Assembly: GCF_003918875.1 (NCBI RefSeq)
Contig: NW_025766980.1
Location: forward strand, 3,596,001-3,660,000
DNA: 64,000 nucleotides
Direction of reading: 5' to 3'
From: Haliotis rubra
Lineage: Eukaryota
A program made the translations under genes and the position numbers. Every line of letters starts with the position of its first letter. Position 1 is the stretch's first letter. Under the pieces are notes generated by a model. It searched no databases and had not been told where the DNA came from. It saw only the letters and a list, made by a program, of their open reading frames with translations. Positions 1 to 54,432 of the stretch are shown here, piece after piece.

Positions 1-162
1 GGGTAGCCTAGTGGTTAAAGCGTTGTCTCGTCATGCTGAAGACCCGGGTTCGAATCCCCACATGGGTACAATGTGTGAAGCCCATTTCTGGTGTCCCCCA
101 TTGTGATGTTGCTGGAATATTGCTAAAAGCGGCGTAAAACCAAACTCAGTCAGTCAGTCAGT
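1..162 (+). mobile_element. tRNA-derived SINE, family A (5' end cut by window edge)
   Basis: A-box-like TAGCCTAGTGG, B-box GGTTCGAATCC, core GGAATATTGCTAAAAGCGGCGTAAAAC and (CAGT)n tail; near-identical to the copy at 8687-8848. Confidence 0.9.
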
Positions 163-16447: not shown

Positions 16448-16482
<35 letters not shown>

Positions 16483-17449: not shown

Positions 17450-17515
17450 TTAAACTAATTCTGACAACTCACATTGAGATTTTGCTATTTCTGACAAAAT
17501 GCAAGGGATACCTCA

Positions 17516-20039: not shown

Positions 20040-20071
20040 TTGTGCATTTGTGAAGTTGGAAGGCCTGTTCT

Positions 20072-27329: not shown

Positions 27330-27955
27330 TTAACTAACATGGACCATCCAAAATCAAGATTATAAAGGCCGTCTATAAGAAGAATGTTTGTCTTGCTACG
27401 ATCTTAGTGCTATGGCCAGGTGAGGATATGTTACAATGTCGTGGCCATAATAGATGATACAATTTTGAAGCATTATGGATTTTTTGCAGCTATCTATATA
27501 ACATTTATTTAATGGCTAGTCATACAACTGGCATTCCTGTCTTTAAAGCGAAATTAAACATGGCATACCTACCGACATCAGGCCACTCCAAGGAATTTTA
27601 AAGGGTAGATCCCGTATGCTTAAGGTGACATATGACCACAAGCGAGGCAGTGGAATAAGTAAATGACTTTGAAAAGAATGAAAAGACTTTACTTATTTTA
27701 TTATTCCATTATTATTCATTCGTGATGTTAATACATTGAGTTATAGTTTTGAAAAGTGAACAGAATCATATATCAAGTTCATTTTGTGCACTGATATAAG
27801 CTGTGTCAACAGTCGACTCGCGGTACGTTGATACACATGAACAGCCAATTCACGAATTAACAGCACAGAAATTTCAGCAAATTGTTCTGAGAAAACAGTA
27901 AGGATCGTTTGAAGTATATTTTCATTCCTCTGTTTTTCTTGTTCCAGCAGCGATG

Positions 27956-28444
27956 TTATTTCCCCACTATCTCAGGGGACGATCCGAGATTCAACTCACA
28001 CAGAAAAAATTCTCTGTTTTGACAGTCATTGTCGTCCCACCGGTAGGCCTCTTTCTTGTACAACATTAGACAGAGCTGGGTGACAGCCTTATTTGGGTCC
28101 CCAGGAGCCCACCAGGTATTGGCGATCCGGGTATTTTCAAATCCCCACTGCCACTCGCTGGGTACCAGGTATGTCAAACCACCGATCCAGACACCGTCAG
28201 TCGTTATAGTAGAGTTTTCTCGTATGAGATAACCTTCAAGGAATGTCTGTTCCGAAGCCGTCTTCACGCGAGCCAGGTGGGAGCCTATAGCCTGACAGTA
28301 CACAGCCGCCTCTGCCCACGATGCTTTGACACGGATGAGACTGTAGCAGGAGTCGTCGTGGCGCAGGAAGCCGCTCGGACAGTCACTACAAACCACGTTC
28401 ATAACTGCCAAGAGGACAGTGATACTTATTGATGAGTAAAACAT
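27956..28444 (-). CDS. Perlucin-like C-type lectin, copy 3 (162 aa, DPN/WDD)
   Basis: Signal peptide, CTLD cysteines, WIGG, WDD; ends PEIVGK. Confidence 0.92.
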   Translation of the reverse strand: MFYSSISITVLLAVMNVVCSDCPSGFLRHDDSCYSLIRVKASWAEAAVYCQAIGSHLARVKTASEQTFLEGYLIRENSTITTDGVWIGGLTYLVPSEWQWGFENTRIANTWWAPGDPNKAVTQLCLMLYKKEAYRWDDNDCQNREFFLCELNLGSSPEIVGK

Positions 28445-30710: not shown

Positions 30711-30876
30711 GAAACACGTTATTTATCAGGGTAATCTAAAGCTTCATTTAATAGATGAAGCCTTAGTCGGACCCTTCCCATTACCATCTACTACCCCTCT
30801 ACAAAGCTTTATTTCACAAATAAGACTTTAGTTGGGGACCCTTACTCATTACCTCTACTATAGTGGTATCTTGCCT

Positions 30877-31865
30877 CTATGTCGTGTTGACAGGAGGTAA
30901 TACTGTGTCATACGGTACAATCAATAATTCTTCTCTTACAAACCCTCTGCCTGGCCCATCCCTCAAGAAATACAAGGTAGGTTCGCCGGCTTTGATGTCA
31001 ACTTTATCTATGTTGTAAGTTTTGACTGACCATATAGGATCAGTGGCTCGTTTCCGGCTATCCCCCTCGTGTTCCCCGGCTGGTATAGATACCTCACTAG
31101 GGACCCTATCTGGTATCTGTTTCTCCTTCCCACGCAATGGAGCAGCCGACTCTGCTATTATTGATTTTAATTTTATAGCGCGTCTGCCGGCTTCTTACCA
31201 GTGAGTCGTGTGATTTCATGATTTATGGCAGACACCACCTTAGGGAGCCGTTCAACCCATTCAGTCGATCGTTTTTCTGGGTTGGTCATTTCTCTCGCAT
31301 ACTGATACCCGAATAAACGCTCAGCCAAAGTCCTATTAAATCTCTCAACTATGGCTTGGCTGCGATGGGCTCCAACCGTGCCACGTCTCACTCGTACTTT
31401 GTGCTTAGTCAGCAACTGTGATACAACACCCATGAACTCCCGACCAGGGTCAACTTGGAGCTCTGTTGGCCACGTTAGTGGACTGCGTTTGTATATGCGT
31501 TCAATGGCTTGAGCTACCTGGGCAGAATCTTTCGTGGTCAATGGTTCAGCTTCCTTATACCGGCTGGCTACATCCACGATAGTCAGGGCATACTTGTAGG
31601 TTTTACGTCTCACCCTGTCGTGAGGTAGGAACAGCAGGTCTGCTTGGTGAACGTTATTAGGTATGTTAATACCAAACTTCCTTCTAGGCACATAGCGTGG
31701 TGGTGGTAAATATATCTGCCAAAGTGCTTGTTTTTCAAGCCATGTTTTGACCTCCTCCGGGGATACTCGAGCCATTTTAGCTAGCTTATCTACAGCGCTA
31801 GCTCCTTTCCAATACCCACGCGGACTATAGTAAATAGCCTCAAACTTTTTCTGGTTCCGTGACAT
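30877..31865 (-). CDS. Retroviral-type (rve/DDE) integrase; one frameshift near 31178
   Basis: HQADL, VDPGREF and VERFNRTL catalytic motifs; continues as ADAIKLKSIIAES...GKEKQIPD after a 2-nt GC indel. Confidence 0.92.
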
Positions 31866-31883
31866 GTCACTATTTATTTATAC

Positions 31884-34800
31884 CTATGTTCTTGGTTCAA
31901 TTTTCTCATGCCCGTACGCGTACGTGTTTATCCCATCAATGGCTATCCAACGTTTGGTATCCATAGGGGATAATGATGTTTTATTTATAGTCAGCCCGTA
32001 TATCCTATGCCCATCACTTCTAAGTGTGTTCATTTTATGTTTAAAGGTACGGGTCTTGAACAGGGCTTCCTTGAATCTGGCGTGTTTGATGTGTTGTTTC
32101 ACCACGTATTTTTTTACACCCTTAGCTTTCCGGATCTCACCATTGTCGGCCTTCAGTATGGAGTACATCTTAGGCCTCAACCCTATGTACTCGGCTATGG
32201 GCGTGCCAGCACACTCGTCCTTCATCTTACCTAGGACCTTTTTATTCACCGTGCTGTGTATGGTATGGTCCTTGGGATAGTCGCTGGTGTCGTACAAATC
32301 GAGGTGTTTTTTCATGTCCTCGTACACGTCCTCGGTTCGAATCTCCATCAGCAGGGAATCCGTGTCAGTGTATAGCACTTCACACCTGTCATCGTACTGT
32401 TTCTTCAGCTCGTTGTAGTAAAAGTCGTACATCAAGTGTTTGGATAAATCGAGGATGCTCATCCCAACGTAAACAGGCCGGTTTAATATTATGTGACTTT
32501 TCTTCATGTGTATGGCAGCCAGGTCGTTATCGAATATCTTACTACGGTTGAATGCAGGGTTAGCGATCAGCTTCCTGAGTTTTTCCTCCTCATTCGACCG
32601 AACCAGCTTCACGTCCACGCGTTTCCTCAGGTTCTCCATCGTCTTACCGAATACCGAGTTGTTCATGAGCTTATAGAAGTTTTTCTCAAAGTCACTGGTG
32701 GCAAGCTTTCGGAGGTCCGTGTTCATTCTGATGTAAGGCTCCATCCATGGGCTCTGGTTGAACTTCAGCACTCTGTGTATTTTGGTCAGTTTCATACCCA
32801 ACGACAGGTACAGCTGCAGGTTGCGATAGTGAACTATGTATTTGGTCTTATTCATTAAGTTAGGCACGAGTTTTTCAACGCCCGTCACCCGCCTATCTAA
32901 CAAGTTATGTTGGTATTCAGACATCCAGTCTGGGTTAACCCTCATACGTTCGGGAGCTAGCGGATAGCTGTTGTGTGATTCGTGTAATGCTTTGGGATAC
33001 TCCAAGTCAACCTCGAGGATATAACCTTTGTTCGAATCCGGCGCGATGCTCATAATATCGAAATCGGATGATACCCATTTGAATCCCCCCTGTTGGTAGA
33101 TACTGACTCATGGCCCATCCGTACAGGTTATTTGCGTCGAGATAGAGAATGTGATTGGTTGGTTTGCTAGGGTCGTAGCCATTCACGTATTGATTATTTG
33201 CTTTAGCGTATCGTTTGGTTGCCATGGAGATCCCACCTCGCAAACCTTTCTCAATGAACAGGTGCATGTCATAATCAGTAAGCAATTCCAACTTAACTCC
33301 GGTCTTTTTAAGCAAGGCATCCCACGACAGGCCTGGGCTGGTGTAATACCATGCTGGATCTAGTTTATACTGCTTGATACATGTCCTCCTAAATGTCTCA
33401 AACACGTCGGCTAATAGTAGTACATCCATCTTCAAGTACAGATCGTGATAGTCACCCAGGTTTTTTACAACCAAGTTTATTCCATACATTAATAGCGTAC
33501 GAGTAATCGTCTTCGGATATTTCCGAGTCTGTCAGATTGCTGTAAAATTCTCTGATGGGAGGTAGTCTGGTCTCGGCGAACTTAGTCCAACTATCCATGT
33601 ACTCATAGGGATACACACCCTTCCTCATAAGCAGAGATCTAGTCTCGGCGTCTGTGTATCGATCGGTGATAGGGAAGGTATCGTTGGCTTTGATCAGGCT
33701 GGCTAATGACGACAATAGAAATTGACACGAGTCAATGAACCTAAGTCCGTCTAAGCTGAAAGAGAGATATTTCTCCATGTTGTTGGGGATGCACGTTATA
33801 TTACCATCGATTTTCGCGATGGCCTGCATGATTAAGTGAGAGTCGTACCCTCTCAAGTTGTGAAAGACAACGGGAATGTTTATTGTTTTAGGGTTGATTC
33901 TAAGCTTGAGGTTACACTCGTTATGAGCGGCGCCTCTATACTTACCGGTTATGTGACAGTGATCTCTCACCGAATCACCGTTCAGTGGTGAGTCACACAC
34001 GTGACAGTTAATGCTACGGGAGTGAGCTAACCTGTCGGCTTGGGTCATACGCATGGGAGCGATTCTATGCAACTTTTCCCTAATAATTTCTTCTTCCTCC
34101 TTCAAACACTTTAGAAACCTTTCAACCGCGTCAGGACCCCTGTACACTACGGGAGATTTCGTTTCACCGTCACAACGGACGACTATGTATCCAAATCCAC
34201 ATGCTTCATGCTCTTGTGTTTTGTATGTGAAGCTCTCACCTGTGGGTAGAGCATTGGGGGTCCCCCCAATATCAACTGGTTTGACCAAGGCTTCAAAGTC
34301 GGCGTATATAATATAAGGAACAGACATTTGGTGCTTGTGGTTGTAGAATTTTAGGATATTGTCACCTTCCTCGGGCATGTCGATGCGTATAGCCGTCTGT
34401 CCCACACCTTGACAATACTCCTGGTGGGATTCTAATAAATCAGCTCGGCTGAAACCGTGCAGACATCGCATACAAAAGTGTTTTTTCCCATTGTGTTTCG
34501 ACTGATCGTGCAACAACCGACTGAAATGTTTTATCCACGTGTAGTGATACTTTTCACCTCGTTGGATCATGAATATATTGATAACACGTTTCCCCACCAA
34601 CGAGCTGAGCCTGTGTATTATTGTTGTGTCGTCTTCGTGTCCAAAGACATTTATAGCTAGATTATTCTGTTTTTCTACTTTAGTGATCTGAGATATGGTG
34701 GTTGGTTCATCTATACCATCCCAGTTGAGTCCATCGTCTTGGGGATAACTAGAAGGCCTGTTCGAATTAGTGTCAGCTGGAAACAAGGCTGATCTGATAG

Positions 34801-35290
34801 CTAATCTCAAGCAATCGTTTCCTCTATTCTTAACGTTTACTATGGCCTGTTTTTTCTTATAGTAGGGAGGCAAGTCTAGGTATGACCCGCCTTTGAACGG
34901 CACGTAGTTAGCTATGTCTAGATAGACAATATCGATTTTATCTACAGCCCACCCGGATCCCAAGTGTGTGTAGCGTTCTAGGTATTCCTGTATCTGCTGA
35001 AAACTAGTATCGATCGATGTGTTTATAGTCTCTATCTGGGTCACGACCTCTTGTACACCTCGGAAGTAAGGCTGAACGTACTCGGTAACATCCCCTACGT
35101 TCTTTTCGAGTGTCATTTTAATTGTGATTTGAAATTTGATACTTCCAAGACTGGCTAGTTCCTGTTTTATTTTATCATCTATCAGGGGCTTAATATCTGA
35201 GACATCTATATTCCTATCAACGCGCATGCGCCAGCCTCTTAAATACTTACCTACAGCGCGCTCAGTGCGTACGAACTGTATAGTATTCAT
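31884..35290 (-). CDS. Protein-primed family B DNA polymerase; two homopolymer frameshifts (~33465, ~33088)
   Basis: Exonuclease motifs YADFE and FHNLRGYD; inserted endonuclease-VII-like RDHCHITGKYRGAAHNECNL; KGVYPYEY; polymerase motifs DANNLYGWAM, KLMNNSVFGK, YTDTDS. Confidence 0.95.
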
Positions 35291-35348
35291 AATTGCGTAC
35301 ACACCTAAGGAATTAATGTCTAATTGGGCCGCCGTAAATGTAAAAAAA

Positions 35349-35650
35349 TCATATATCCTCTCCGTTACCCCAATGAACTATTTTTAGATGGGCTGTTTCG
35401 ATCCAGTGCTCACACTGTTTGATATAGTATTCCTTGAAGTTTAGCAGGTATTCCGATATACTTGTAAAACAATCTATCTGGTGTTGAGTCGTGATGGTCC
35501 CCACACATACGAAGGGACGAGTATACTTAACACCATCTTTAATCCATACCATTTTCAATATTACCTGAAATCTGAAGTTTAGTTTATCTTTGAGTATGTT
35601 TTTTTTACCTGAGATTCTATGTCTTCACTGGGATCAAGTTCCACAAACAT
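35349..35650 (-). CDS. Small viral ORF resembling the N-terminal domain of the adjacent pPolB (frameshift in a T-run near 35600)
   Basis: FQVILKM..YTRPF..FTSISEYL versus pPolB FQITIKM..YVQPYF..FQQIQEYL. Confidence 0.5.
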
Positions 35651-35728
35651 ATCTATACGTAAGTGTGTAATAATCTCTAATTGGGGTCTATCTTGAGAAA
35701 TCGCCTACGTTCTTTTATGTAGGCCTTT

Positions 35729-35929
35729 TTATTCTCGTAGATGAGGTGATGTCTGACTACGTTCGCCCCCGTGAGCTTTACATAAACAATAGTGTCCTTT
35801 GACTCCTATACCACACACAGAACACGAGTAGTTGGGACTTCCCATGTGGAAATAACAGTACCCATGAGTACCGCATACCCTACCACAGGTCTCGGTCTTC
35901 CCCATAAGTATGTATTCACATCTATACAT
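35729..35929 (-). CDS. Small Cys/His-rich (zinc-binding) viral protein
   Basis: C-x9-C-x3-C-x5-C-x2-H and C-x2-C-x10-C-x2-H patterns; AT-rich motif directly before the ATG. Confidence 0.6.
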   Translation of the reverse strand: MYRCEYILMGKTETCGRVCGTHGYCYFHMGSPNYSCSVCGIGVKGHYCLCKAHGGERSQTSPHLRE

Positions 35930-35950
35930 GTTAACATATTTATATGTGTA

Positions 35951-36374
35951 TTAGTCTAATTGCTTCACAACCAAAGCAGTCGCCGCTATACCCAGCGCTA
36001 TGAAGGTCAGTTCACGGTCCATTTGTCCCTTGGATGGTGTGTAGTACTGAGCGAGTGTTGGCTTCTGTAGTGGCTCCAATCGTTTACCAGTTAATAAGTA
36101 GTATTGTCTCGCTGCGTCGTCGACATCGTGGAATGTTTGAACGGCATGGTTTTCACGCCTGAGTTGTTCGTTAATGTAATCGATCCGCTGGAGGCGTTGT
36201 TTAGCGTACTCGGCCTGTGCTATTTGTAAGTTCTCAATAGCGAGATCGTGCCGCTTCCTCTCCGCCTGTATTTCAGCCGCGTGTGACTCTCGTAGTTTAG
36301 AAAGAGAAATTACTCCCGGAAAATGCCAGGGCATTCACTAACGCACCACCGACCATCATAGCAATCGTAGCCAT
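35951..36374 (-). CDS. Viral coiled-coil protein with hydrophobic N- and C-termini (frameshifted)
   Basis: MATIAMMVGGALVNALAFSG joined to SKLRESHAAEIQAERKRHDLAIENLQ...FIALGIAATALVV. Confidence 0.7.
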
Positions 36375-36382
36375 CCTTATAT

Positions 36383-36610
36383 TTATTTCATAATATCTTC
36401 AGGTATTATTCCTTGTTTTACTAGGATGTCTTTTGTGGCCATCGCCATACCAAGGTTCATTATTAGCATACCCATATCCTGCAGGTTGAAATCTAGCTTG
36501 ATAGTTGGTTGTTTAAGCACCATTTTGGTCAACCGAGCGTATCCTACGGCTAGACTGGCGACCACGGTGGCGTGGTATGCGTCGTTGACGAACGTTTTCC
36601 CCTCAGACAT
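36383..36610 (-). CDS. Small hydrophobic viral protein (75 aa)
   Basis: Clean ORF with two hydrophobic helices; TATACATAATG start context. Confidence 0.7.
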   Translation of the reverse strand: MSEGKTFVNDAYHATVVASLAVGYARLTKMVLKQPTIKLDFNLQDMGMLIMNLGMAMATKDILVKQGIIPEDIMK

Positions 36611-36947
36611 TATGTATATGATATAAAAATATATATTTTATTGCATGATATGCGGGTTGACCTCTAATTGTGGGGGAGGGTTTCCCTCCCTGTGTCGTGT
36701 ATATAACCACGAGATAGCCACGGCAGCAGTTGCGCATACAACCAACAAGAGTCGCTCCCGGGTGAGTCACCCTGATAATTTTATGTTGGTTACACCACCG
36801 TTTTTTACCGGCAGCTACTCTCTTAGGATTCTTCTGCCTGGTGACTGTGGGAGGGTTCACAGTCACCTGTGAGGGGGTCTCCTCCAGTTGGGGTGGGGTC
36901 TCCTCTGAAGGGGTCTCCTCCTTGGGGGTCTCCTGTGCAGCATCCAT
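36603..36947 (-). CDS. Viral protein with EETP repeats and basic motif KNPKRVAAGKK (probably frameshifted)
   Basis: Acidic Pro-rich repeats followed by a basic patch; same strand and abutting its neighbours. Confidence 0.55.
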   Translation of the reverse strand: MDAAQETPKEETPSEETPPQLEETPSQVTVNPPTVTRQKNPKRVAAGKKRWCNQHKIIRVTHPGATLVGCMRNCCRGYLVVIYTTQGGKPSPTIRGQPAYHAIKYIFLYHIHNV

Positions 36948-37405
36948 CTATACTATTATTATTATTTTTCCTCTCAAATTGACAATGCTTTGCCGTGATA
37001 ATCGCCGCCGTCACCGGGGCTAACAACATACCGTATTTGTGGTACAGCTCGCAGCTAATAGAGCTCAAGGCGTGTTCGATAAAAGGGTCTTTCTCTAAGT
37101 CTTCCCACAGGTAAAGTCGACGCTCCGGGGGGGATGGGAAGGAAGTATGACGCAATACCAGTGTATATCTGGGTCATAGCCGATCCTATTGTCTTTGTCA
37201 TCTCTGAACCTAGTCTAGTCTCGTATTTAGCGTACAGTTTATCGATTTCTTCGGCTGACATTTTGTGAATTTTATCCGGAGTGTACTCCCCAAAGTAATG
37301 TTTGGCTTTGCCACCAACAGCCAACGCCACCAGTTTCTCTCGCTTATCATCATCCACCTGTATTTGGGGTACCAACAGTTGCTCTAGCAACTCCTCACAC
37401 TCCAT
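36940..37405 (-). CDS. Hypothetical viral protein (frameshift in a G7 run near 37130; 3' end approximate)
   Basis: MECEELLEQLL...YFLPIP joins PERRLYLWEDLEKDPFIEHAL...AKHC. Confidence 0.65.
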
Positions 37406-37526
37406 CCTATAATATGATAAGTAAGTTTTAGTTTTAACAATATAATATACGATATAAGCGAAACACAGAGAAATGAAAGGTTAAGTTGCACACGACGAGC
37501 ACTTCAAATACCATAACTATAACTAA

Positions 37527-37618
37527 ATGCTAAGTATTTATTTAAGCATTGCTAAGCATTGCTAAGCTTTACTAAGCATTGTTAAAATTTACTAAGCATT
37601 GCTAAGCATTGCTAAGCT
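37527..37618. repeat. 10-bp tandem repeat (TGCTAAGCAT-like, about 9 units) inside the virus
   Basis: ...TAAGCATTGCTAAGCATTGCTAAGCTTTACTAAGCATT... Confidence 0.85.
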
Positions 37619-38266
37619 AAAACACACTATAGGCTACTGGTTGGTCTGTCTTAAGCACGAGCTTAGCGTGTTTAGTTTCAGCTAGCTGTTTCTTCACCCG
37701 TTCCCCGTTCTAATTTGCTCATCACATCGTTCTCTCTCAAACACTCTTCGAACGAATCCCTGTCCTTGCAGTGAAATAAGGCAACCCATCGCGTCTGCTC
37801 CCTGAGGTCTTTCAACACCGAGTTGAACTTCTGCGTTAGCACCCAGACGCTGTGCTTTGCGTGTCGGCCTGAAAATGCCAGGTACGATAGCATATCTCTC
37901 TTTTTTGTTATCTCGCGATTAGCGCTGCAGTCGTCCAGTATGAACAACGTCGACTCCCCTTTAAATTTCATATGGTAAGCTTTCAACCAGTCCTGTAGAC
38001 GTGGCCCCGGATCGACTCTGTGTACGTCAGGGTCCGTCATAACCCAAGGTCTTTCCGTGTACGTTTTATTCATGCTCAGAGTAGGACACATGATAACGAT
38101 GTGGTCGAACACATCCCTGTAGTACCCCCTCCAACATATCCAACACGAAAACGGTCTTCCCACAGCCAGTCTGCCCGCACACTATGGCGCAGTGTGGGTC
38201 GCGGGGCAAATCAGTAAATGGCTTGCCGCCAGGCAAATCAGTAAATGGCTTGCACGAATCTCCCAT
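37617..38266 (-). CDS. A32/FtsK-HerA-type genome-packaging ATPase (two frameshifts)
   Basis: Walker A GQTGCGKT, Walker B LFILDD, GRHAKHSVWVLTQ arginine-finger/sensor motif. Confidence 0.9.
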
Positions 38267-39496
38267 TGTCTATATTAAGTTGCGCATCCATAATAACGTA
38301 CAGATATAATTTCAACTTGCCAGCGGGTTGAGCCTTCTTGGTAATCTGGATAGTAATTCCTTCGCTACCATTGTCTATTCTACGGCCGCTACCGTGTAGT
38401 TTATCGTCATCCGTGGATCGCATGTCCAACCACAGCGCGTACTTGTTAGTTAAGTATTCACCGATTTGCACGGAGGATAGGTCCAGGTCTTTGGCTATAT
38501 ATGGATGTTTGCTCGGCAGCTTTTTTATCTCATCCCACTGCTGGTACGCACGCATACCATGACTAAACAGCTGGTTGGGCACGCCCTCGATGGTCACTTC
38601 CACCTTTTCGATCTCTGGGTTGAAAAACTTCTCGCTGTCCCTCCGGAACGGCTCGTAATCCTCCACAGGGACTACCAGGATGCCTTTCATCGATCGCGCC
38701 GGCACGTTCAGGTTGATATTCCACACAGTGTCGCTCTTATCCCGCACGATGGATCTATGCCTCAGTATACGATCGTACAGGATGGCTACATTACCCGAGT
38801 ACTGGTTTCGAACCTGCCTTGCCAGCTCGGGTTAGTGACCATGTCGAACTCCAGAGAGATGTTGTCTATGGTATAACTGGCCTCATCACCGTTCGGCGTA
38901 CGCACTACTTTGCTGTAGTCGTTAAACGTGAGCTCGTATTCAAGCCTATCACCCAGCGCGGCTTGGTAAAACGGCGCGTGTTCCGTGAGCAACTCGAAGT
39001 CGAGCGGCACGCAGAACCGGTTCCCGTACGCTTGAGCGATGGCCTTTTCACCGTCCGATAGCTTGTCTAACTGGTCTGCCGTGAAGGCATACCCAATGCG
39101 CGACCTGGTCGATTTACTGATACCTTGGTACACGTCATTGACGCGTTCTCCCTCGCTTTTCCAGAGGTCCTTGTAGCAGTGAAAGACGTCGCTGTCGTCG
39201 ATGCTCAGCACCTCGTTACCGGTGATCTTGATGGTGGTTTTCTTGATAATAGCTCGACCTACGTTCCGCACTAGCTCGCGTTTGTCGTTGTCGGAGGTCA
39301 ACGTGATGTTGAACGCCAGTCGAACAGTGCCTGGTACAATGAGGTCATTCGCGCCAAGGTTTGGAAATCTAACCAGCAGCGTTTGATTCTGGTCTATCTT
39401 GCTGGGATTGTTGGTGATGGTCACCGACTGACGCACGGCTTTGACACCTAGTGGCTCTCTCGATCTTCTGAAAGGATCTAGTTTTCTACCGTACAT
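38238..39496 (-). CDS. Major capsid protein (probable double jelly-roll, ~420 aa; frameshift near 38830)
   Basis: Size, beta-rich pattern (LLVRFP, LAFNITL, FCVPLDF, LEYELTFN, NISLEFD, LYLYVIMDA) and position directly upstream of the ATPase. Confidence 0.78.
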
Positions 39497-39535
39497 TGTT
39501 ATATAAATGAAATATATAAGTTTTAATACTAAATA

Positions 39536-40653
39536 ATGGCCGAGTATATCCCTATGGAGGATATGTGGGATAATAGTGCCCTGGATGATGTTTCATCCTC
39601 ATTAAGTGGTGAACTCGTACAGCCAACTGTCAACGATTATTACAACGCAGTTGAAAATAGAAGACATCAAACCGTTGGGGAGGGACTATTCCAAGTTTAC
39701 AGTCGATAATAAGGGCACGTTGCGATTGAAGGCTTACCCGGAGATCGATCTCATGAATAAGCGCACGAGAGAACCGCTTGCCTTATCAACACTCACCAGT
39801 CGTCATGGTAGTAACTTTATCCGTGATGAACTAGGCTTCGTAGATTACGGCGGCGCGCGACCTAAACTTCCTCCTAAGACCGTCCAAGATCTGCAAGCAG
39901 CCAGAGTCAATACTAGGAACGCTAAAGAAACGTCAGACAGTATCGAAAAAATATTGGCTACGTATCATGATAAACCCTTGCCGGGTCTCGAATTTCCTCT
40001 GAGAGAACTGCGAGGCTTAGACAAGCCTTGAAACATGTACGTGGAGAACTCGTTAACAACATGGGTAAACTGAACGAAGTCGATGAGCGCATCGCTCGCG
40101 AGAAAATAAAACTAACCGAAACTGAAGACGATGATATGAAACGTCGCATCGAGGAGAGAATAAAAAAACTTGGAAGACGAGAGACGGACTCGGTTGGAAT
40201 CCGCTTCCTCGAACCGGGAAGCCCTCCGATCACAGATCAGTAGAGTACGGGAAACCATCGATCGAGTCCTAAATGAAGACACCACGCTAGCTGACAGGAT
40301 CCGAATCCTGTTCCGTGAACAAGGCATCACCATCGCCAGCATTCTGACTGCATTGGGCTTCATCATATCTACCCTGGTGGTGTCACTTAGTGGGGGTACC
40401 CCCACACCCCCAAGTGGTGGCGGTGGTGGCACAGGTGGTGTTAAAGAGTGGATTAAAAAACTAGGGGGAAACTCTAGCTAAACTGGCTGGTAAGGCCGCC
40501 GAAGCCCTGCCTGGCATCCTGGGTAGCATCGTCTCGTGGTTGCTGAGTGTTTTAGCTAAAACTGCTACGTGGCTCAGTCAAAACCTGTGGGCAGCCATCG
40601 TCGCAGTAGCTGGTTTGGTGTACGTAGCGGCTAAGGAATTTTTAACCAAATGA
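39536..40653 (+). CDS. Viral coiled-coil/membrane protein (several frameshifts)
   Basis: Coiled coil followed by hydrophobic ITIASILTALGFIISTLVV, a Gly linker, amphipathic LPGILGSIVSWLLSVLA and a C-terminal hydrophobic helix. Confidence 0.65.
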
Positions 40654-41778
40654 GCCCCAAAGCCACCCCACCAACCACCATGGCTGTTTTACGATCGATG
40701 TGCTGTGAACCCACAGTGGGTGCAGACTGGGGCTGTAGGTGTGTGTGTTGAACCCTAGGTTCCGGGGATGGCGCCACTATACCCGTTTCACCGGTCGTGG
40801 GTGGTGGGACGTGGGGGACGTTGACATCGAGGTTGACGCCCAACTTTTGACCCGCCGTGGCTACAATTATTTCGTTGTTGTAGCCCACCACTTTTTTTAC
40901 TCTCAGTTGCATATCGCTCGGAGCCATGTACAGTCCCACGTCGAACACGTAGTCGACTTTCGACCTGGCGTATTCCAACACGTCTTGGTAGCGTTTGATG
41001 GCACTCGGGAGATCAACTGGAGCATTGATAGCATCCTCAACGTTGACAACGAACTGTTTCTGGCGTCGTAAGCAGTCCCTTACCTAGGATATATTGGAAC
41101 GCGTTTGCGTCTGCGCACCAACAGTGCCCACGTACGTTCGAATCGAGTCATTCAAGCGTTCGGTGCCGGCACGAGTATACCCTTTCGATTCCAACATGAA
41201 TTTTTCCAGTCACCACCCTGCTCGAACCTCCAAACTCGGTAATCCTTGCTGTCGTCGAATGCCATATAACGGTCATCCCACTCGTTTGTTGTGACGTAAT
41301 GATTCGCATTGTATCACCACCCCATTCTTTCAACTTCTCGCTGGCTTCCACGAGGGCATGTTGTGAACGATAGGAATACCCAATCCGTGGTTCGGTCCGG
41401 CAAACGCCAATCCGTTTTAGTGTCGATTCGAATTCGTTGCAAATACGTTCGTAGGCCCGTCTATCGTATTGGTTGTTTACTGCATTCCACGCTTTTTCCT
41501 GTGAGGTGGGGCGCTGATCTCTTTGAGGATACGCCTGACCTGGTAGTACACGTGAAACGTGAACACAGACTGACTCAGCGGTCCACGCCGAGTGTCGGAT
41601 ACACCACACCCGTTGTAGCGCACCACACGGCGAAGTTGAGTTGATTCTGCCAGAACTGCATCGGGTTGTTGAACCAAGCGTGCACTGTCTTAACGTTAGT
41701 CACCGAAAACTTATACTTATCGAACACATCTATGAACTGGGCGTCGAAATACAATCCATCAGCGACCACGATCTTCAT
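40631..41778 (-). CDS. Hypothetical viral protein with C-terminal transmembrane anchor (several frameshifts)
   Basis: Fragments FWQNQLNFAVWCATTG, FHVYYQVRRIL, RLNDSIRTYV, RYQDVLEYARSKVDY and terminal AMVVGGVALGLIWL are collinear on one strand. Confidence 0.65.
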
Positions 41779-41797
41779 GTTTTAAAACTATTATATA

Positions 41798-42466
41798 ATG
41801 AGTTTATATAACATGTACATAACACTCCCAGGAATAACGAGCGGCGAGGCCGTTCAGCTGACGCACGCGATCGATAACACGTCGGGTCAACTCGAAATAG
41901 CACTGTGCGATATAACCTACCTACCACGATGGACTAACATCAACGCTAGCAACAATAAACTGTTCGTAGGTGGCGCTAGCAACAAGATAATTGATGGTTA
42001 CTACAGCGTGTGCTCTCTAAGCGACGAGGTATTCAAACCATTGGGAGCCGAACTCAAGATGAACGACTCAAACGGCACAGTGGTGTTAATCAACAACGGA
42101 AGAAACTCCTTGCGGCTAGGCCGGCCATTGGCTAGAACACTCGGTATGCAGCCTGACGAGGTAAAACCAACGACTACAGTCACAGGCGCGAAGTTACCCG
42201 ACTTAGTACCGTACCGAGAGCTGTGCATTCATCTCAACCAGGTTAGCACAACGGACAATATTCAAGGAGGCCACCCTTCCACTATACTTAGAGCAGTGCC
42301 GGTTAAAACGGAGAAATACAACGACGGCAGAACCGAGTCGTTTTCAACGTGGCAATATAAGAGGTTAACCCAGGGCAACATCCCTGAGCTGATAATATCG
42401 GTGTTAGATATAAATCATAATCTCGTGAATATAGGATACCTCAGCGTAACGCTGCACATAAAATGA
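41798..42466 (+). CDS. Minor capsid protein (penton, single jelly-roll; 222 aa)
   Basis: EIALCDITY, IIDGYYS, ELCIH, STILRAVPV, YKRL, IISVLD and terminal VTLHIK pattern typical of Polinton pentons. Confidence 0.75.
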   Translation: MSLYNMYITLPGITSGEAVQLTHAIDNTSGQLEIALCDITYLPRWTNINASNNKLFVGGASNKIIDGYYSVCSLSDEVFKPLGAELKMNDSNGTVVLINNGRNSLRLGRPLARTLGMQPDEVKPTTTVTGAKLPDLVPYRELCIHLNQVSTTDNIQGGHPSTILRAVPVKTEKYNDGRTESFSTWQYKRLTQGNIPELIISVLDINHNLVNIGYLSVTLHIK

Positions 42467-43383
42467 CCAGCGCACAAGGTCCCGGAATGAAGTTGAAAAA
42501 ATGCACCAATGTGGGGATCTCCGATCTCGGGGACACACGCGGATTCGACGACCCCGGAGTAGATGGTAAAGTGTACGCCTTGCAACTTAAAAACAGCATT
42601 TATAAACGCGTTGAAGTTTCCGGTGGTACTAGCAACCTAAGCGATATAGTAGATACCTCAAGAGCGGCAGTCAACACTAAGTACACCCTTGTCACCACCG
42701 GGGATGATAACTGGATGATATACCCATACGGGGGCAAACTGTTCGACTTAACCGATGTTGAGAGCACTACCGTCGCCCGAAACAAACCATATACGCTCGT
42801 TTTCACCGATGATGACAAGTGGGTGTTATTACCGGGTAAAGTCGACTGGTTTCTCAATATTAGGCTCGGCTCCCCCTACGTGTTTACGGATAATAAAGAC
42901 AACCACCTAAACAAAGTCGTGAACAACGGAACCCTGCTCGTGGCTTACATCCCGACTCAGAGACGTAGCGTAGTCATCAGCCCACTCGCCAGTATGGCAG
43001 CCCACATGCTATCGAGTAAAGCGGGGATGCAAAACGTGGTATTGCAGTTGGTGTCTGAATTCGAAGGTGTGGTCAGGATCCTGGAGAGTCTACCGGCGAA
43101 CTCAACACTGGTCATCCAAGTCTACCTAGGGGAACCATCGCGGAATGATGTAGAGATCGTGAAGGGGGTCAAACTCCGGTGGGGGAAACAACAACAGTAT
43201 CACGTTTGCAACGTTTACGTGCGGGTGGGTGTCGACTCCAAAACCAGTCTGCAGGGTGTCACCGTGGTCGTGGAAGACACTATATCACTAACCAAGATAT
43301 TCCTACCCGACAACATACACTTCATGGGGGTGAAGTGCACCCCTGAACTATTATCAGAAAACCAGTTGGAAATTATCTCGTAA
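42463..43383 (+). CDS. Putative fibre/spike protein 1 (306 aa)
   Basis: Overlaps the penton stop codon; three (I/L)xD(L/I)xD(T/V) shaft-like repeats followed by a beta-rich head. Confidence 0.6.
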   Translation: MTSAQGPGMKLKKCTNVGISDLGDTRGFDDPGVDGKVYALQLKNSIYKRVEVSGGTSNLSDIVDTSRAAVNTKYTLVTTGDDNWMIYPYGGKLFDLTDVESTTVARNKPYTLVFTDDDKWVLLPGKVDWFLNIRLGSPYVFTDNKDNHLNKVVNNGTLLVAYIPTQRRSVVISPLASMAAHMLSSKAGMQNVVLQLVSEFEGVVRILESLPANSTLVIQVYLGEPSRNDVEIVKGVKLRWGKQQQYHVCNVYVRVGVDSKTSLQGVTVVVEDTISLTKIFLPDNIHFMGVKCTPELLSENQLEIIS

Positions 43384-43393
43384 TAATATAGCA

Positions 43394-44120
43394 ATGTCTT
43401 GGATTCGCCCCAACACTACGATTAACGACTTAGGGGACACGGAGGGATTCGATCAGCCTGGTGAGGAAGACACCTTATACATCCTGCACTTGAAAGACAA
43501 CGTGTATAGGCGGGTGTCGTTATCAGATTTTAAAGAGCCTGAATGGTTAGTCAACTTAACCCTCACCTCACCTTATATCTCCCTGAAACAAAAGAATACT
43601 ATCTCCGAGATTAGGAACAACGGTATGATTATAGGATCGTTCGTTCCGGAATCTAGTGTACAAGTCATACCAATACCAGACCACTCGGGCAACATGTTAG
43701 CTTCAGACAGTGGGAGGGTAAAGATAGAGATCAAATTACTCGATTACCAAGAGGTTTTTAGAAATGTTGCGGAAAACTTCACATTCATCATAGACGTCTA
43801 TCTCGGAGATATAAGTTTGACTAGTAGTTATATTAGCATTATAGATGATATGGTGATAGGTTGGGAAGCCAGGTGTAATAACCAACGTTGTTGTATTATT
43901 AAGGTATCAGGAAACGACCCTGTACCAACCCTTGATGGGGTTCGTCTCTTTAATGGACGTAGAGCTAAGACCCCGCTTTTTTTACACGCACGTTAATCTA
44001 AGTATTATCGGCTTTAAGTACATTAATCGAAGGTTAAATGAAACCCAATTAAAATATATTATGGGATTGAGCTATATCCCTGAATTAGTACCAGAACACT
44101 AGTTGGAAATTATATCGTAA
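43394..44120 (+). CDS. Putative fibre/spike protein 2 (paralogue; frameshifted 3' part)
   Basis: INDLGDTEGFDQPG, WLVNLTLTSPYI and IRNNG shared with neighbours; 3' end TTGGAAATTATATCGTAA mirrors the LEIIS* end of fibre 1. Confidence 0.6.
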
Positions 44121-44133
44121 TAGTATTATAGAA

Positions 44134-44851
44134 ATGTCTTGGCTTCACCCCAACACTACGCTTAACGATCTAGGGGACACGGAGGGATTTGATAAGCCTG
44201 GTCATAAAAACACCTCATACGTCCTATTATTTAACAACGGTGTGTACATACGGCAGGACCTGGCAGTCTTTAAAGAACCTAAATGGGTGATCAACGTGAC
44301 CACCACCGCACCTTATATCTCACTAGACAAAGATGGTTATGTCTCTGAAATTAGGAACAACGGTACCTTGCTCACGTCTTTCATTCCAACTGAAAGGATG
44401 ATAGTTTCTAACTCTGAATATTGGCCTAGGGACACCCTGTTAATTTCAGCCAGGAAGTCTCAGTTAATAGCCACCCACCACCATCATTCCATAATAGGGG
44501 TTAGGGGTATGGAAACAAACTCCACACTCATCGTAGAAGTCGGTTACAAGGATAAGTTTGATTTGGATGACCTTGACCCATCCCCAAACTTGGAACTTTT
44601 ACCTGGTGTAACAATACGTTGGGGTAACGACCCCTTAACATCAGGTTTTTTTATCTTGCATATTCGTGATACGATTGGGGGACTCCCAACAGGGATTACT
44701 ACCCCCCATAATAAACTGCTATGATGTTGAGATAGACCAAAAGTTACCTATTGACCCTTCCCGTATCTACACATATGAGAATCTAAGTTTTATAAGCCTC
44801 AGGTACGTTGGCCAACTATTAAGTGATGCCCAATTAAAATATCTTTTGTAA
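44134..44851 (+). CDS. Putative fibre/spike protein 3 (paralogue; frameshift near 44705)
   Basis: LNDLGDTEGFDKPG, WVINVTTTAPYI, IRNNGTLL, VTIRWG. Confidence 0.6.
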
Positions 44852-44864
44852 TATATATTATAGG

Positions 44865-45471
44865 ATGGGACTGTATCCAGGCATAGATGAAGTAGTAAAG
44901 ACCCTGGAAACCGTAGACGGGTTTCGCTTGAGACAATTATGTGATGTAAGACGCCAACTAGAACAAGATCGTGACAAGCGGGAAAGCACTATATAAAAAT
45001 ACCATAGAGCTTTCAATGCCGTGGATGGGGCCGATACTACCCTTATGGCAACCAGCATGGGACTAGGGGTGGCAGGTGTTGGGTTGTTGACAACCATCGT
45101 GGCTGCACCTATAGTGTTGGGACTCGAAATAACGGCTGGGGTGTCAGGGTTGGCTGGATTGGTATTTAAGTTTGTTTCTCGCAGACTGCATCGTAAGGCA
45201 TTGAAGCATGATGAGATCAGAGTTCTGGCTGAAGCAAAGCTTAACACAATAGATGATCATATTTCCACGGCACTCACTGACAACAAAATCTCGGAGGAGG
45301 AGTTTCGTTTAATCCTCTCTGAACTCGCAAAATATGATAAAATGAAACAAGAAATCGGTCCAAGTCTCGTAAAAGTCTGCTACTATCAGCGAGGATGAGA
45401 AAAAAAAAGTACATAGAACAGGGGGGTACAAAAAGCCCAGCAAGCCTTTATTACCAACACCAAAGACATAG
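44865..45471 (+). CDS. Viral membrane-active/coiled-coil protein (frameshifted; 3' end approximate)
   Basis: FRLRQLCDV..., Gly-rich hydrophobic hairpin GLGVAGVGLLTTIVAAPIVLGL..AGVSGLAG, then KHDEIRVLAEAKLNTI...ISEEEF. Confidence 0.7.
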
Positions 45472-47400: not shown

Positions 47401-48204
47401 AACGGATTGACTGTCACAATGAGCAGTACATAGTTAAACTCAGCCCTTCTTCTCGACCCCCCACCCCTTCCCCTTCTCTGACACAACTGTAGGTGATTTA
47501 TGTAGAAATGGCAGCAGTTGGGAAACGCCTTCCCCAATCTACCCAGAAATGATAACTGATGGTCCAGTAACATTTGAGGACGACAAATGCACCGTACATT
47601 GTTATCGTCTCAAGCACCAAGTCAACCCGCCAGTTCAATGTTTCAACCTCATGAGGACAGGATAGTGTGGTGTCACGTAAGCCTTGTAGTTATCAAGGAG
47701 GTGCACCAGATATGGCGTCTCGACACTGACTGGTAATATGGTCACGACACTGGTTGGTAATATGGTCGTGCAATCCCATGGTGTAAACCTAGACCCGTTT
47801 CAAATGGTTCTTAGATGTTCAGTTTGAGCAGAACCGGAACAGGATAAATCGACTAATTAAATCGAACAAACGACGAAAAGCGTTGAATACTTAATGTTCT
47901 AGTATCATTAATGATGAACTATTCATGTTAATACATCAACTAATGTAAATAGTAAGTGATAATACTATGTCCATGTCCTTTTCAAACTTCCAGAGGCTTG
48001 CATATTCAGAATGAACAGAGATCATAAATATTTTACGATCATGTAGGGGCATCACTGGAGTTTACAATTAATGTATCCGTCAGTAATTATACACATTATG
48101 TATTACAAAATACATTTAAAACCATGATGTACATTACTACTAGAAAAACAGTGTTTCTCGGGACAGAAGAACTGTTATCCTCAAAGCCGGGCTTTCTTCC
48201 ATTG

Positions 48205-48696
48205 TTATTTCCCAACTATTCCAGGGGTGGACTTCAGCTCCAGTTCACATAAGAAAAACTCCTTGAAGTTACATTCTTTGTCGTCCCACCGATAGCTCTC
48301 TCCCTTGTACAACATCAGACAGAGCTGGATATTGTGATAATCATCAGGCTGTCCAGGAGACCACCAGGTACTTTCGATTCGGGTGTTCTGAAATCCCCAC
48401 TGCCACTCGTTCTGTATCAGGTACGTCAATCCACCTATCCACACTCCATCAGTAGTTATAGTAGAGTCTTCTCGTTTGAGATAACCTTCAAGGAATGTCT
48501 GTTCCGAAGCCGTCTTCACGTAAGCCAGATGGGAGCCTATAGCCTGACAGTACACGGCTGCCTCCGCCCATGATGCTTGCACACGGATGAGACTGTAGCA
48601 GGAGTCGTCGTGGCGCAGGTAGCCGTTTGGACAGTCACTGGAAACCACGTTCACAACTGCCAGCAGGACAGTGATACTTATTGATGAGTAAAACAT
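48205..48696 (-). CDS. Perlucin-like C-type lectin, copy 4 (163 aa, QPD/WDD)
   Basis: Signal peptide, CTLD, QPD; ends PGIVGK. Confidence 0.93.
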   Translation of the reverse strand: MFYSSISITVLLAVVNVVSSDCPNGYLRHDDSCYSLIRVQASWAEAAVYCQAIGSHLAYVKTASEQTFLEGYLKREDSTITTDGVWIGGLTYLIQNEWQWGFQNTRIESTWWSPGQPDDYHNIQLCLMLYKGESYRWDDKECNFKEFFLCELELKSTPGIVGK

Positions 48697-50685: not shown

Positions 50686-51175
50686 AAACGTTTTTCCCAA
50701 AATAATAACCGCAAATTGGGCAAGTAACACTTCAAGAAGTACAGAAATTCACCGTAAATTGTTATCGTTTCAATCACCAAATGAACACAGTTCCATGTCT
50801 GCAATCACACGGTGAAAGCCCAAAACCGTTTCAAGCAGTTCTCAGATGTTCTGTTTGAATGGGCTGTTTAAATCGAACAGCAAGCAATCAAACTCGTTAA
50901 ACATTTAATGTTCTGGCATTATTTACAATGACTTATGCATGCTAATACACTGACTTATTTAAATAACAACTGATAATACTTTGTCCATGTCCTTTTCAGA
51001 ATTTCCAGAGGTTATGCATATTCAGAATGAACAGAGATCATAAATAATTTTACAATCATGCAGTGGCATCACTGGAGTATACAATCAATGTATCCGTCAG
51101 TAATTATTAAAAGGCACATTTTAAACTATGCCACACATTACTAGTAGTAAGGAAAAGTCGGACTTTCTTACACTG

Positions 51176-51667
51176 TTATTTCCCAACTATTCCAGGGGTG
51201 GACTCAAGCTCCAGTTCACATAAGAAAAACTCCTTGGCCTGACATTGATTGTCGTCCCACCGGTAGTCGCCTTTCTTGTACATCATCAGACAGAACTGGA
51301 TATTGTGAACATGATCTGGCTCCCCAGGAGCCCACCAGGTACTGGCGATTCGGGTGTTCTGAAATCCCCACTGCCACTCGTTCTCTATCAGGTATGTCAA
51401 CCCACCGATCCAGACTCCATCAGTAGTTATAGTAGAGTCTTCTCGTTTGAGCTAACCTTCAAGGAATGTCTGTTCCGAGGGCGTCTTCACGTAAGCCAGG
51501 TGGGAGCCTATAGCCTGACAGTACACGGCTGCCTCTGCCCATGATGCATCGAAACGAATGAGGCCGTAGCAGGAGTCGTCGTGGCGCAGGAAGCCGTTGG
51601 GACAGTCACTGGAAACCACGTGCATAAATCCCAAGAGGACAGTGATACTTATTGATGAGTAAAACAT
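51176..51667 (-). pseudogene. C-type lectin copy 5 (EPD/WDD) with one in-frame stop
   Basis: 492 nt, same length and frame as copy 4; TAT>TAG at 51452-51454 is the only lesion. Confidence 0.9.
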
Positions 51668-52721: not shown

Positions 52722-53943
52722 TTTGTCTGTGCAAACCTATGCGCGTGATTAATCATGTAACAAATGTTATATTTGGGATACCACTCTATACACTTTGGGA
52801 TTTACAAATATAACATTTGTTACATTTGGCCTCTTTATAAAAGACATCGTGTATTTTCGATTAATCATGTTTCTGTTATGTGTGATCTTGTGTTGAAGCA
52901 TGGAACCTCAATGCTCCCCGAAGACTTATGTCCTATCAGAGCTGAAAGGTCGCTCTGTGTACAATCAGGCTTGTGTTTGAGTCGGTAGACAACAGTGTGA
53001 AAAACGTTAAAAGATCATTGTATGCTAAGAGTACTGGCATGTTAAAGCGACATGCCTATCTCTATTGATTTCGTTGTAGCTCACATGATATATTTACTGA
53101 AACAGACATGTATATAAGTATTTTGTTGGAACATAGACTATGTAGATTTCGAAAAAAAATGTTTGATGTGAAGATAGACATCACTTTATATGTGTATGTC
53201 CACATTATTCTACGATCAAAATGTTAACAAAGTAACACAGTTTATAACCTGATGACGTGGCTGTACAGAATCTTTCAGGAATGTATCTATATCTGTAACG
53301 AATTTGTAACATGCTCCAAATGTTACTTTGCAATAAATATCGCTTACATCCCTGCTCATTAATAACACAGGTAAGCACACCTTTGAACCCTTATTCCTTG
53401 GTATTTTGTATTGTGAAAACAGGAAAACAGCAGAGGTATATTTCTTGAGGTTTGACATGTTATGCAGTAGCATAAAATATTGACGGTTTTATGTCACAGT
53501 TTCACACACCAACGGAGGCTCTAAAGGTGATGGAATACACTATGCAAAGCAGAAGTTTTCAACACTAGAACTAACTCATGTAGTGACTTTTACAATTTCC
53601 TGATTAGTAAACATAAAATAATCAAATAAACTTAACTTTTCATTAAATTTTTATGACGGGGTACCATGTTGGAGCGGGATATTAATAGCGATCCAAACCA
53701 TCAGCCATAATATCTGTCGAGTGCATAAATACTATCAAACTATCAATACTTTTCATGACTGGTTTATTGTCTAACTAAAACGACATAAAACATAGCGAAA
53801 AAGATAACCAGTTCACAAATAATGAATGTCTTCCTTTTCTAAACACGGAATAAGTCATTCACATATTTACTGTGTCCAGGACGATGTCCAGTAGTGTCCG
53901 CTGAGTAGACATTTGTTACGTACCCTTTAGCTGAACAGAAATG

Positions 53944-54432
53944 TTATTTTCCTGTAATGTTAGGTACATCTTTGAGCTCAAGCTCACACAGGAAGTAATG
54001 TGGGTAGCTGCAATCAGCATCATCCCACTTGAATGCCTGAGGTTTATACAACATGAGACAAAACTGGTCCCCGTCATGATTTGGGTTTCCCGGAGACCAC
54101 CACGTATTGGCGATGCGCCCGCCTTTAAAGCCCCACTGCCACTCGTTTTCTGTCAGGTAGGTCAAACCAGCCAGCCAGACTCCAGAGGACTGTATAGTTG
54201 ATGATTCTCGCTTGAGATACCCTTCCAGAAAAGTCTGTTCAGCAGCTGTTTCGACATATGCAAGATGGGAACCTATGGCCTGACAGTACACAGCCGCATC
54301 CGCCCATGTGGCTGTAAAGCGTATAAGACTGTAGCAGGAATCAACCTGACGTGTGAACCCGCTAGGGCAATTTTCAGCTGAAATCTTCGTAACAGCCAGG
54401 AAGAGAAGGAACGTCACAGATGGGATCCACAT
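53944..54432 (-). CDS. Perlucin-like C-type lectin, copy 6 (162 aa, NPN/WDD; most divergent)
   Basis: Signal peptide, CTLD, WLAG, WDD; ends PNITGK. Confidence 0.92.
   Translation of the reverse strand: MWIPSVTFLLFLAVTKISAENCPSGFTRQVDSCYSLIRFTATWADAAVYCQAIGSHLAYVETAAEQTFLEGYLKRESSTIQSSGVWLAGLTYLTENEWQWGFKGGRIANTWWSPGNPNHDGDQFCLMLYKPQAFKWDDADCSYPHYFLCELELKDVPNITGK

Follow-up and report, generated by a model that had tools for sequence, protein, structure and literature searches.

Animal Maverick/Polinton elements are about 15 kb long and carry an rve integrase, a protein-primed B-family DNA polymerase (pPolB), an A32 packaging ATPase and a double-jelly-roll (DJR) capsid protein between terminal inverted repeats (TIRs) that end AG...CT and are flanked by target duplications of 5–6 bp. 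According to the introduction of one preprint, no Polinton virion has been seen to date, and an autonomous nuclear virus is set there against a parasite of a larger virus (bioRxiv 2026.06.19.733378); a 2026 preprint reports elements from corals, hydrozoans and bivalves that fall outside both main Polinton groups. A family alike in all of these structural traits is represented in a 64,000-nucleotide (nt) stretch of the Haliotis rubra genome (contig NW_025766980.1, positions 3,596,001–3,660,000), referred to in full as the window. Most of its genes are preceded by a two-part, promoter-like signal that is new as far as the literature was searched: no account of an animal Polinton promoter was found, subscription journals and bioRxiv supplements being outside the scope of that search. 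The analysis followed up an earlier note on this DNA, which had read short divergent gaps and TATA words next to start codons as possible signs of a viral, perhaps helper-encoded, RNA polymerase.

The most similar promoters described so far belong to vaccinia virus (early genes), African swine fever virus (ASFV; early genes) and the yeast killer plasmids, where the upstream conserved sequence (UCS) plays this part. In all three an AT-rich core lies about 20–24 nt, counted from a central purine, from an A/T initiator, and the element stands 20–40 nt before the ATG with very short leaders, as here (PMC6211774, PMC7163114, PMC7458399). Transcription starts about 20–21 nt after the G of the vaccinia early element and likewise about 20–21 nt after the G of the UCS (ATNTGA, 20–40 nt before the ATG) (PMC6211774). 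ASFV initiators read TA(+1)NA and TA(+1)TA; late leaders there have a median length of 9 nt, and slippage occurs at ATA (PMC7163114).

Virophages, together with polinton-like viruses (PLVs), share another set of traits with the H. rubra element: they are integrating, capsid-coding elements without an RNA polymerase and with one conserved upstream motif. The TCTA motif of mavirus and endogenous mavirus-like elements (EMALEs) has been matched to Cafeteria roenbergensis virus (CroV) (PMC8547959) and the AAAATTGA motif of Gezel-14T to Phaeocystis globosa virus (PgV) (bioRxiv 2022.07.28.501842); a pacmanvirus transpoviron carries AAAATTGA and TATATA motifs (PMC11788076), and endogenous PLVs of Tetraselmis are reported to be helper-induced (bioRxiv 2025.10.09.676808). 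In those systems the motif is matched to a known helper; the host here is an animal. For animal Polinton-type elements found in entomopoxvirus occlusion bodies, parasitism on a large DNA virus has been proposed (Barth et al. 2024, PMC11296320); the main text of that paper contains no promoter analysis and none of the words 'transcription', 'motif' and 'upstream'. Host polymerases can also be involved: the chlorovirus word ARNTTAANA, at −15..−45, is read by the host polymerase, which a ranavirus immediate-early element with ATTGAAAC likewise requires (PMC5294985). The chlorovirus word has an N-T-T-A-A core at a similar distance from the ATG, and its sequence matches the core described below only in part.

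A two-part signal upstream of Polinton genes

The window contains a broken Polinton copy at about 30725–45469, as delimited by blastn against 30 sister copies and a search for TIRs; both of its termini are gone. The element combines pPolB with an rve integrase and a DJR major capsid protein with an A32 ATPase, and most of the 30 sister copies have TIRs ending AG...CT and 5–6 bp target duplications; it is a member of the Polintons. At least 150 capsid matches of 86–100% identity were present in the same genome (150 of 3024 candidates were scored). The own-genome sample comprised the 30 sister copies and 10 more divergent ones. Outside relatives came from 31 metagenome loci (29 + 2); two scans of IMG/VR gave no relative of the window capsid. 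The closest animal-named capsid relative was that of the gastropod Elysia marginata, at 63%.

We scored 136 starts, picked from alignments and coordinates; they belong to 15 genes and were taken from four own-genome families and from 16 of the 31 outside loci. Capsid identity between the sampled lineages was 39–86% (median 64%). The signal consists of an 8-nt core, W-D-T-T-R-R-A-S, 30–50 nt upstream of the ATG, and an A/T patch 26–29 nt from the start of the core. The word WTTRRA was noticed by eye first and then counted at −55..−26, where it preceded 69 of the 136 starts (21–23 expected), including 34 of the 62 starts from GC-rich relatives (4–6 expected). Coding windows held it in 34 of 72 cases, against 10.5 after synonymous resampling, and non-coding windows in 21 of 41, against 8.3 expected. 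Unseeded expectation–maximization gave the same W-D-T-T-R-R-A-S (log-likelihood 116, compared with 23–26 in shuffles). The distance of the A/T patch was fixed to the core and not to the ATG, with A+T of 0.74–0.94 at +26..+29 and 0.91–0.94 at +27..+29. Both parts together preceded 79/136 starts, as opposed to 4/170 internal ATGs and 0/30 first ATGs of host G-protein-coupled receptor (GPCR) genes.

A matrix trained on the GC-rich relatives only recognized 12 of 36 own-genome starts (4.3 expected), 16 of 38 starts of AT-rich relatives (5.4 expected) and 1 of 54 internal ATGs; the small lineages scored 0/2, 0/3, 0/5 and, in one more case, 0/2. A conserved internal methionine outside the training set, at the start of the gene beginning at 37405, had a core at −29..−38 in 9 of 14 loci; most relatives have a hydrophobic extension upstream of it. 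Within the window a core lies at −30..−37 for 11 of the 15 starts scored and also before the polymerase start at 35650. The layout of the latter unit recurred in 20 distinct own-genome variants, with the ATG 28–33 nt from the start of the core and a variable spacer. The start at 36610 has a weak core only, at −32.

The core was common to replication and capsid genes and differed little between lineages. Among 53 strict cores, 21 have G at position 5 and 32 are of the TTAAA/TTAGA types, and 41 of the 53 patches contain ATA or TATA. A purine occupies −3 in 124 of the 136 starts, and leaders are thus probably at least 3 nt long; leaders of that length would place the RNA start of cores at −30 to −32 in the patch, not at the usual polymerase II distance. 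The two-part unit is likely a promoter for each gene, and RNA would start at the TA/ATA within the patch, leaving leaders of about 3–25 nt. In the window the predicted starts would lie at 39500–39503 for the capsid gene, at 35654–35657 for the polymerase ORF and at 41805–41808 for the minor capsid gene.

Two more familiar signals were not enriched: TATAWA at −55..−26 (7/136 against 11.3 expected, and 0/62 in the GC-rich relatives) and AATAAA after stop codons (10/105 against 8.8 expected). T-tracts after stops were modestly raised (TTTTT 30/105, 15.9 expected). Termination at poly(T) was considered and rejected: the depletion of T-runs in element open reading frames (ORFs; T4, 189 against 255) was equalled in host GPCR ORFs (190 against 246), and the own-genome families showed no depletion (32 against 27).

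Start codons and head-to-head gaps

All eight TATA words quoted in the earlier note stand in the sequence at the starts for which they were claimed. ASFV late promoters have a TATA initiator a short way upstream of the ATG. Here a TATA lies within 12 nt of the ATG at 11 of the 16 real starts of the window, at 22/36 starts of the four own-genome families (4.8 expected from local shuffling, 7.4 from synonymous resampling), at 14/38 starts of AT-rich relatives (6.6 expected) and at 7/62 starts of GC-rich relatives (3.0–3.4 expected; p about 0.03–0.04). The adjacency of TATA and ATG thus exceeds chance in the animal's own genome, yet it is not a conserved feature of the family. The words are the patch half of the two-part signal, which in the own-genome families falls near the ATG. 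Before the ATPase gene, whose ATG sits within the last codons of the capsid gene, the preceding TATA is itself coding sequence.

The suggestion that the TATA next to the ATG is initiator-like rather than a TATA box, and the messages near-leaderless, is probably right as far as the absence of TATAWA enrichment and the agreement in spacing with poxvirus and giant-virus promoters go. The comparison with a poxvirus late initiator did not hold up, TAAAT occurring at the ATG of 7/136 starts with 10.8 expected. A late initiator standing alone did not account for the pattern either; the conserved element is the upstream core common to replication and capsid genes.

The 39-nt gap between the capsid gene and the gene opposite (gap 1) is present as described and is conserved, at 39 nt in 24 of the 30 sister copies, 37 nt in three and 35 nt in three. 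The second, 19-nt gap at 41779–41797 has the stated length in the window and is not conserved as a gap. Both anchors were obtained for 27 of the 30 copies. In 20 of these 27 the ATG equivalent to 41798 was not in frame with the gene for the minor-capsid-like protein; this ATG has no upstream core, relatives start at the methionine matching 41813, and 41798 is an unlikely start. On the other side, the ATG at 41778 corresponds to an internal methionine in most copies and is exposed by a deletion common to the window and 6 of the 27. The opposite gene, g430, has a methionine 37 nt from the minor-capsid ATG in 17 of the 27 copies; a well-formed unit serves this methionine, and in the same 17 the frame stays open further, on to an ATG that overlaps the minor-capsid ATG, and the TATA of gap 2 may be no more than the antisense of coding sequence. 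Gap 2 is likely 34 nt long here and 37 nt in most copies (17/27).

In metagenome relatives the gap-1 junction measured 42–46 nt and the gap-2 junction −2, 4, 8, 11, 15 and 38 nt. With junctions of −2 to 15 nt in five relatives, the promoters of some gene pairs must lie inside coding DNA, and the short gaps lose the force that the earlier note had given them as an argument by themselves; they are a trait of the family. At gap 1 two units face apart, each core near the patch of the other, and head-to-head gaps of 34–46 nt would in general be two such units. Outside the family, an arrangement similar to gap 1 occurs in a giant-virus contig (L264:19237–19269), where a head-to-head gap of 33 nt holds TTTAAA cores that face each other and a TATA patch.

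Candidate readers of the signal

The reading that we tentatively favour, while giving it somewhat less than an even chance, is that a co-infecting large DNA virus supplies the polymerase, or the initiation factors, by which the unit is read. Under this scheme core and patch would form a promoter for each gene, RNA would begin within the patch, only some bases short of the ATG, and integrated copies, mostly quiet until infection, would then turn to particle-making in the manner of a virophage. The observed part of this scheme is the signal itself, its fixed spacing, its conservation across lineages of 39–86% capsid identity and its retention at synonymous sites, in an element without a recognizable gene for RNA polymerase or TATA-binding protein (TBP). 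No RNA polymerase family was recognized among the element ORFs in Pfam-type scans; to our knowledge all Polintons lack a polymerase of their own, and the lack is hence not diagnostic of a virophage-like state. Replication and capsid genes share one core, as would be expected of one outside reader. The patch lies 21–24 nt beyond the central purine of the core, and the vaccinia early start about 20–21 nt beyond its G. Giant-virus contigs were compared using the best 80 of 527 confirmed polymerase-bearing IMG/VR loci, a mixed set in which no asfa-like or mollusc virus was recognized. In these contigs the distance from the G of the early-type motif to the ATG had a median of 39 nt (n = 127), compared with 37 nt here (n = 61; Kolmogorov–Smirnov p = 0.37), and an A-rich rise was seen at G+20..23.

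A number of observations weigh against transcription by a helper virus. The invariant G of the pox- and mimivirus early core is found in only 21 of the 53 cores, the leading A-run of AAAATTGA is absent, and the mark of pox-, asfar- and mimivirus early promoters, an invariant G in an A-rich NTGA core, was not found. Vaccinia, ASFV and the killer plasmids differ further in encoding their own polymerase, and the core here, without invariant G or leading A-run, is common to capsid and replication genes. By its spacing the unit looks like that of a large DNA virus, yet it lacks the invariant G that defines membership in the class. The core was not clearly enriched in 793 giant-virus upstream regions (counted after 3 of the 80 loci had been dropped as probably prokaryotic), which showed only a mild TTAAAS peak at −36..−25, and no matching helper group emerged from the mixed 80-locus set. 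The 32 of 53 cores of the TTAAA/TTAGA types look compatible with the specificity of cellular TBP, and autonomous expression in the nucleus is the simpler explanation for hundreds of recent insertions in the germ line. Coral polintovirus genes are reported to be expressed in control samples (PMC11131425), and words related to the core are read by host polymerase II in chlorovirus and ranavirus (PMC5294985). Poly(T) termination was unsupported once the host control was used. Orthologous starts are not independent of one another, and we chose them ourselves from alignments.

Close behind comes host polymerase II, which we consider unlikely but not far from the reading just given: host TBP would recognize the core in the nucleus as a TATA box of atypical sequence, and the element would be an autonomous Polinton of the ordinary kind whose leaders are unusually short. 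At 8 bp the core has the length of a TBP site, 32/53 cores are of the TTAAA/TTAGA types, and the first base lies 30–37 nt before many ATGs; chloroviruses have a similar word read by host polymerase, and the high copy number, together with intact TIRs and the presence of target duplications, is in keeping with nuclear expression. The other side of the comparison is that TATAWA itself is not enriched (0/62 in GC-rich relatives), that G, which TBP disfavours at core positions 2 and 5, is common there, and that the usual distance from TATA to start would leave the capsid and polymerase genes with leaders of 0–3 nt. In RNA-type contigs of four samples, all from a single study, 29–30 of the family's 30 bins are covered, as expression from a host promoter would have it; this cover is even, extends across gap 1 and is sized like that of other repeats, so read-through explains it. 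Three of the four RNA-like contig sets do not cover the unique flanks, and starts are not readable from them.

A protein of the element, either an altered, perhaps strongly diverged TBP that escaped recognition or the small zinc-finger-like ORF g66, might instead read the core and recruit host polymerase II, as at herpesvirus late promoters. This is improbable, although g66 is conserved, has invariant Cys/His in alignment and lies beside the polymerase gene, and is the main soluble candidate for an element-encoded regulator. In 59 element proteins no match to the TBP or TFIIB families exceeded the cut-off, TBP in the own genome was found at two multi-exon loci only, and the model of g430 has no TBP match. 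Moreover, g66 and the polymerase carry the same core, so that in an integrated copy the factor would be required for its own production, and the core varies little between lineages instead of being private to each. Far less probable still is that the words are not promoters at all and arise as by-products of AT-rich spacers, codon constraints and the context of translation starts in long or polycistronic messages. Many cores do overlap conserved codons, the TATA before the ATPase start is coding, spacers are AT-rich and the purine at −3 is strongly kept; yet the enrichment holds against local shuffling as well as against synonymous resampling, both in coding and in non-coding windows, the spacing from core to patch is fixed while that from patch to ATG varies, and the unit also stands in divergent gaps that have no upstream message.

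Gene content and other features of the window

The features of the window are collected in Table 1.

Table 1. Features of the H. rubra window; positions are those of the window, and values in brackets give the position of the core relative to the ATG.
Feature	Position	Strand	Remarks
Integrase (rve)	31173..31865	-	Pfam rve, E 4.8e-10
Core AATTGAAC of integrase gene	31895-31902	-	(-37)
Protein-primed DNA polymerase B region, split over several frames	31884..35650	-	DNA_pol_B_2, Endonuclease_7
Start of first polymerase ORF	35650	-	overlooked in the earlier note; agrees with sister copies
Clearest two-part promoter-like unit of the window	35654..35682	-	core AATTAGAG 35675-35682, spacer, TATA 35654-35657, ATG 35650
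g66, small Cys/His zinc-finger-like ORF	35729..35929	-	core 35954-35961 (-32)
Three small conserved ORFs	35951..36947	-	starts 36374, 36610, 36947; each with TATA at most 8 nt from ATG
Cores for starts 36374 and 36947	36397-36404 (-30); 36973-36980 (-33)	-	from sequence
Gene with conserved internal start	37055..37405	-	core TGTTAAAA 37432-37439 (-34)
A32-type packaging ATPase, broken	37678..38266	-	Pox_A32
DJR major capsid protein, broken here	38238..39496	-	Capsid_N, E 0.0016
Gap 1, candidate bidirectional mini-promoter	39497..39535	.	from sequence and sister copies
Core TATTAAAA of capsid gene in gap 1	39521-39528	-	(-32)
AT-rich core for opposite gene in gap 1	near 39500-39513	+	from sequence
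div1, conserved coiled-coil protein with C-terminal hydrophobic segments, broken	39536..40653	+	from alignments
g430, conserved protein of about 410-430 aa with C-terminal hydrophobic tail	40631..41778	-	broken; N-terminus shortened in the window's subfamily
Gap 2, as probable here	41779..41812	.	34 nt; core TTTTAAAA 41780-41787 (-33 from 41813)
Presumed minor capsid (penton)-like protein	41813..42466	+	no profile match
Three paralogous fibre-like ORFs	42463..44724	+	starts 42463, 43394, 44134
Cores AGTTGGAA of fibre-like ORFs	43364-43371 (-30); 44101-44108 (-33)	+	within last codons of preceding ORF
g180, conserved two-helix membrane protein, broken	44865..45398	+	core AATTAAAA 44832-44839 (-33)
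Dispersed segment copies (families D4, D6, D9)	9626-10062, 11206-11642, 27954-28390, 48203-48642, 51174-51613, 53942-54378

The capsid model of a sister copy, of low confidence (pLDDT 53), resembles the capsids of iridovirus, PBCV-1, mavirus and Sputnik. The ORF at 41813 is presumably the minor capsid protein, a label that we take from its sequence pattern together with its position. In the slot of the fibre-like ORFs, relatives have tail-fibre and C1q matches. A relative of g430 (L092:2894-4129) was modelled well (pLDDT 88) and has 737 homologs; the model gave no fold match by Foldseek or VIA-align (best Z 3.3), and the Atlas search for g430 gave no informative match. For g66 there were weak zinc-finger matches in the PDB and 50 homologs with uninformative names. 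One element protein had a TFIIB_C_2 match (E 0.017), which was set aside when a PDB profile search gave no support. A search of the own genome for VLTF3 found no match, yet the control likewise matched nowhere, and NCBIfam yielded nothing useful.

Two differences from described Mavericks/Polintons were noted. The adenovirus-like cysteine protease, a trait of Group 1, had no match in the 59 scanned proteins, among ORFs of which several are still without an assignment, and at least six conserved ORFs at 35951–45398 have predicted membrane segments; such ORFs would suit particles that are put together in the cytoplasm around an internal lipid membrane. The replication block of the window (31173–35929) runs in line with the capsid block, while in L091, L104 and L105 the polymerase faces the integrase; by gene order this difference is an inversion between lineages. 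Between the ATPase and the next gene, at 37440–37620, there are short tandem repeats of the TGCTAAGCAT type, and several relatives have similar repeats in the same place.

Beyond the element, the window contains nested long inverted arms at 14591–23514 (up to 466 nt, 97–100% complementary), which form a palindrome of about 9 kb, and a tandem array of a 31–33 nt unit at about 1780–4030. A short coding-like segment is dispersed in six to eight copies on both sides of the Polinton.

Implications for Polintons of marine invertebrates

A Polinton particle is expected to measure 50–60 nm. Particles of 50–60 nm are cited for diseased abalone, where they were judged too small as the pathogen (PMC7067878, introduction); that they were Polinton particles is speculation. 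Genes for RNA polymerase subunits are present in the asfa-like virus of abalone (PMC7067878). On the widest view of the helper-virus reading, possible but on balance doubtful, a Polinton family widespread in marine invertebrates would consist of endogenous virophages with one promoter type for early and late genes, wired to the transcription system of a large cytoplasmic DNA virus; in this animal hundreds of germ-line copies would become active when a virus, possibly an asfa-like one, infects it, and would serve as an inherited antiviral reserve.

For the transcription of animal Polintons, a conserved promoter-like unit that predicts the RNA start of about a dozen genes in each element makes the choice between helper and host polymerase directly testable. 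If a helper virus does read the unit, marine invertebrates would possess inducible defences of a virophage-like kind, comparable to those known from protists, and this would be relevant to viral disease in shellfish.

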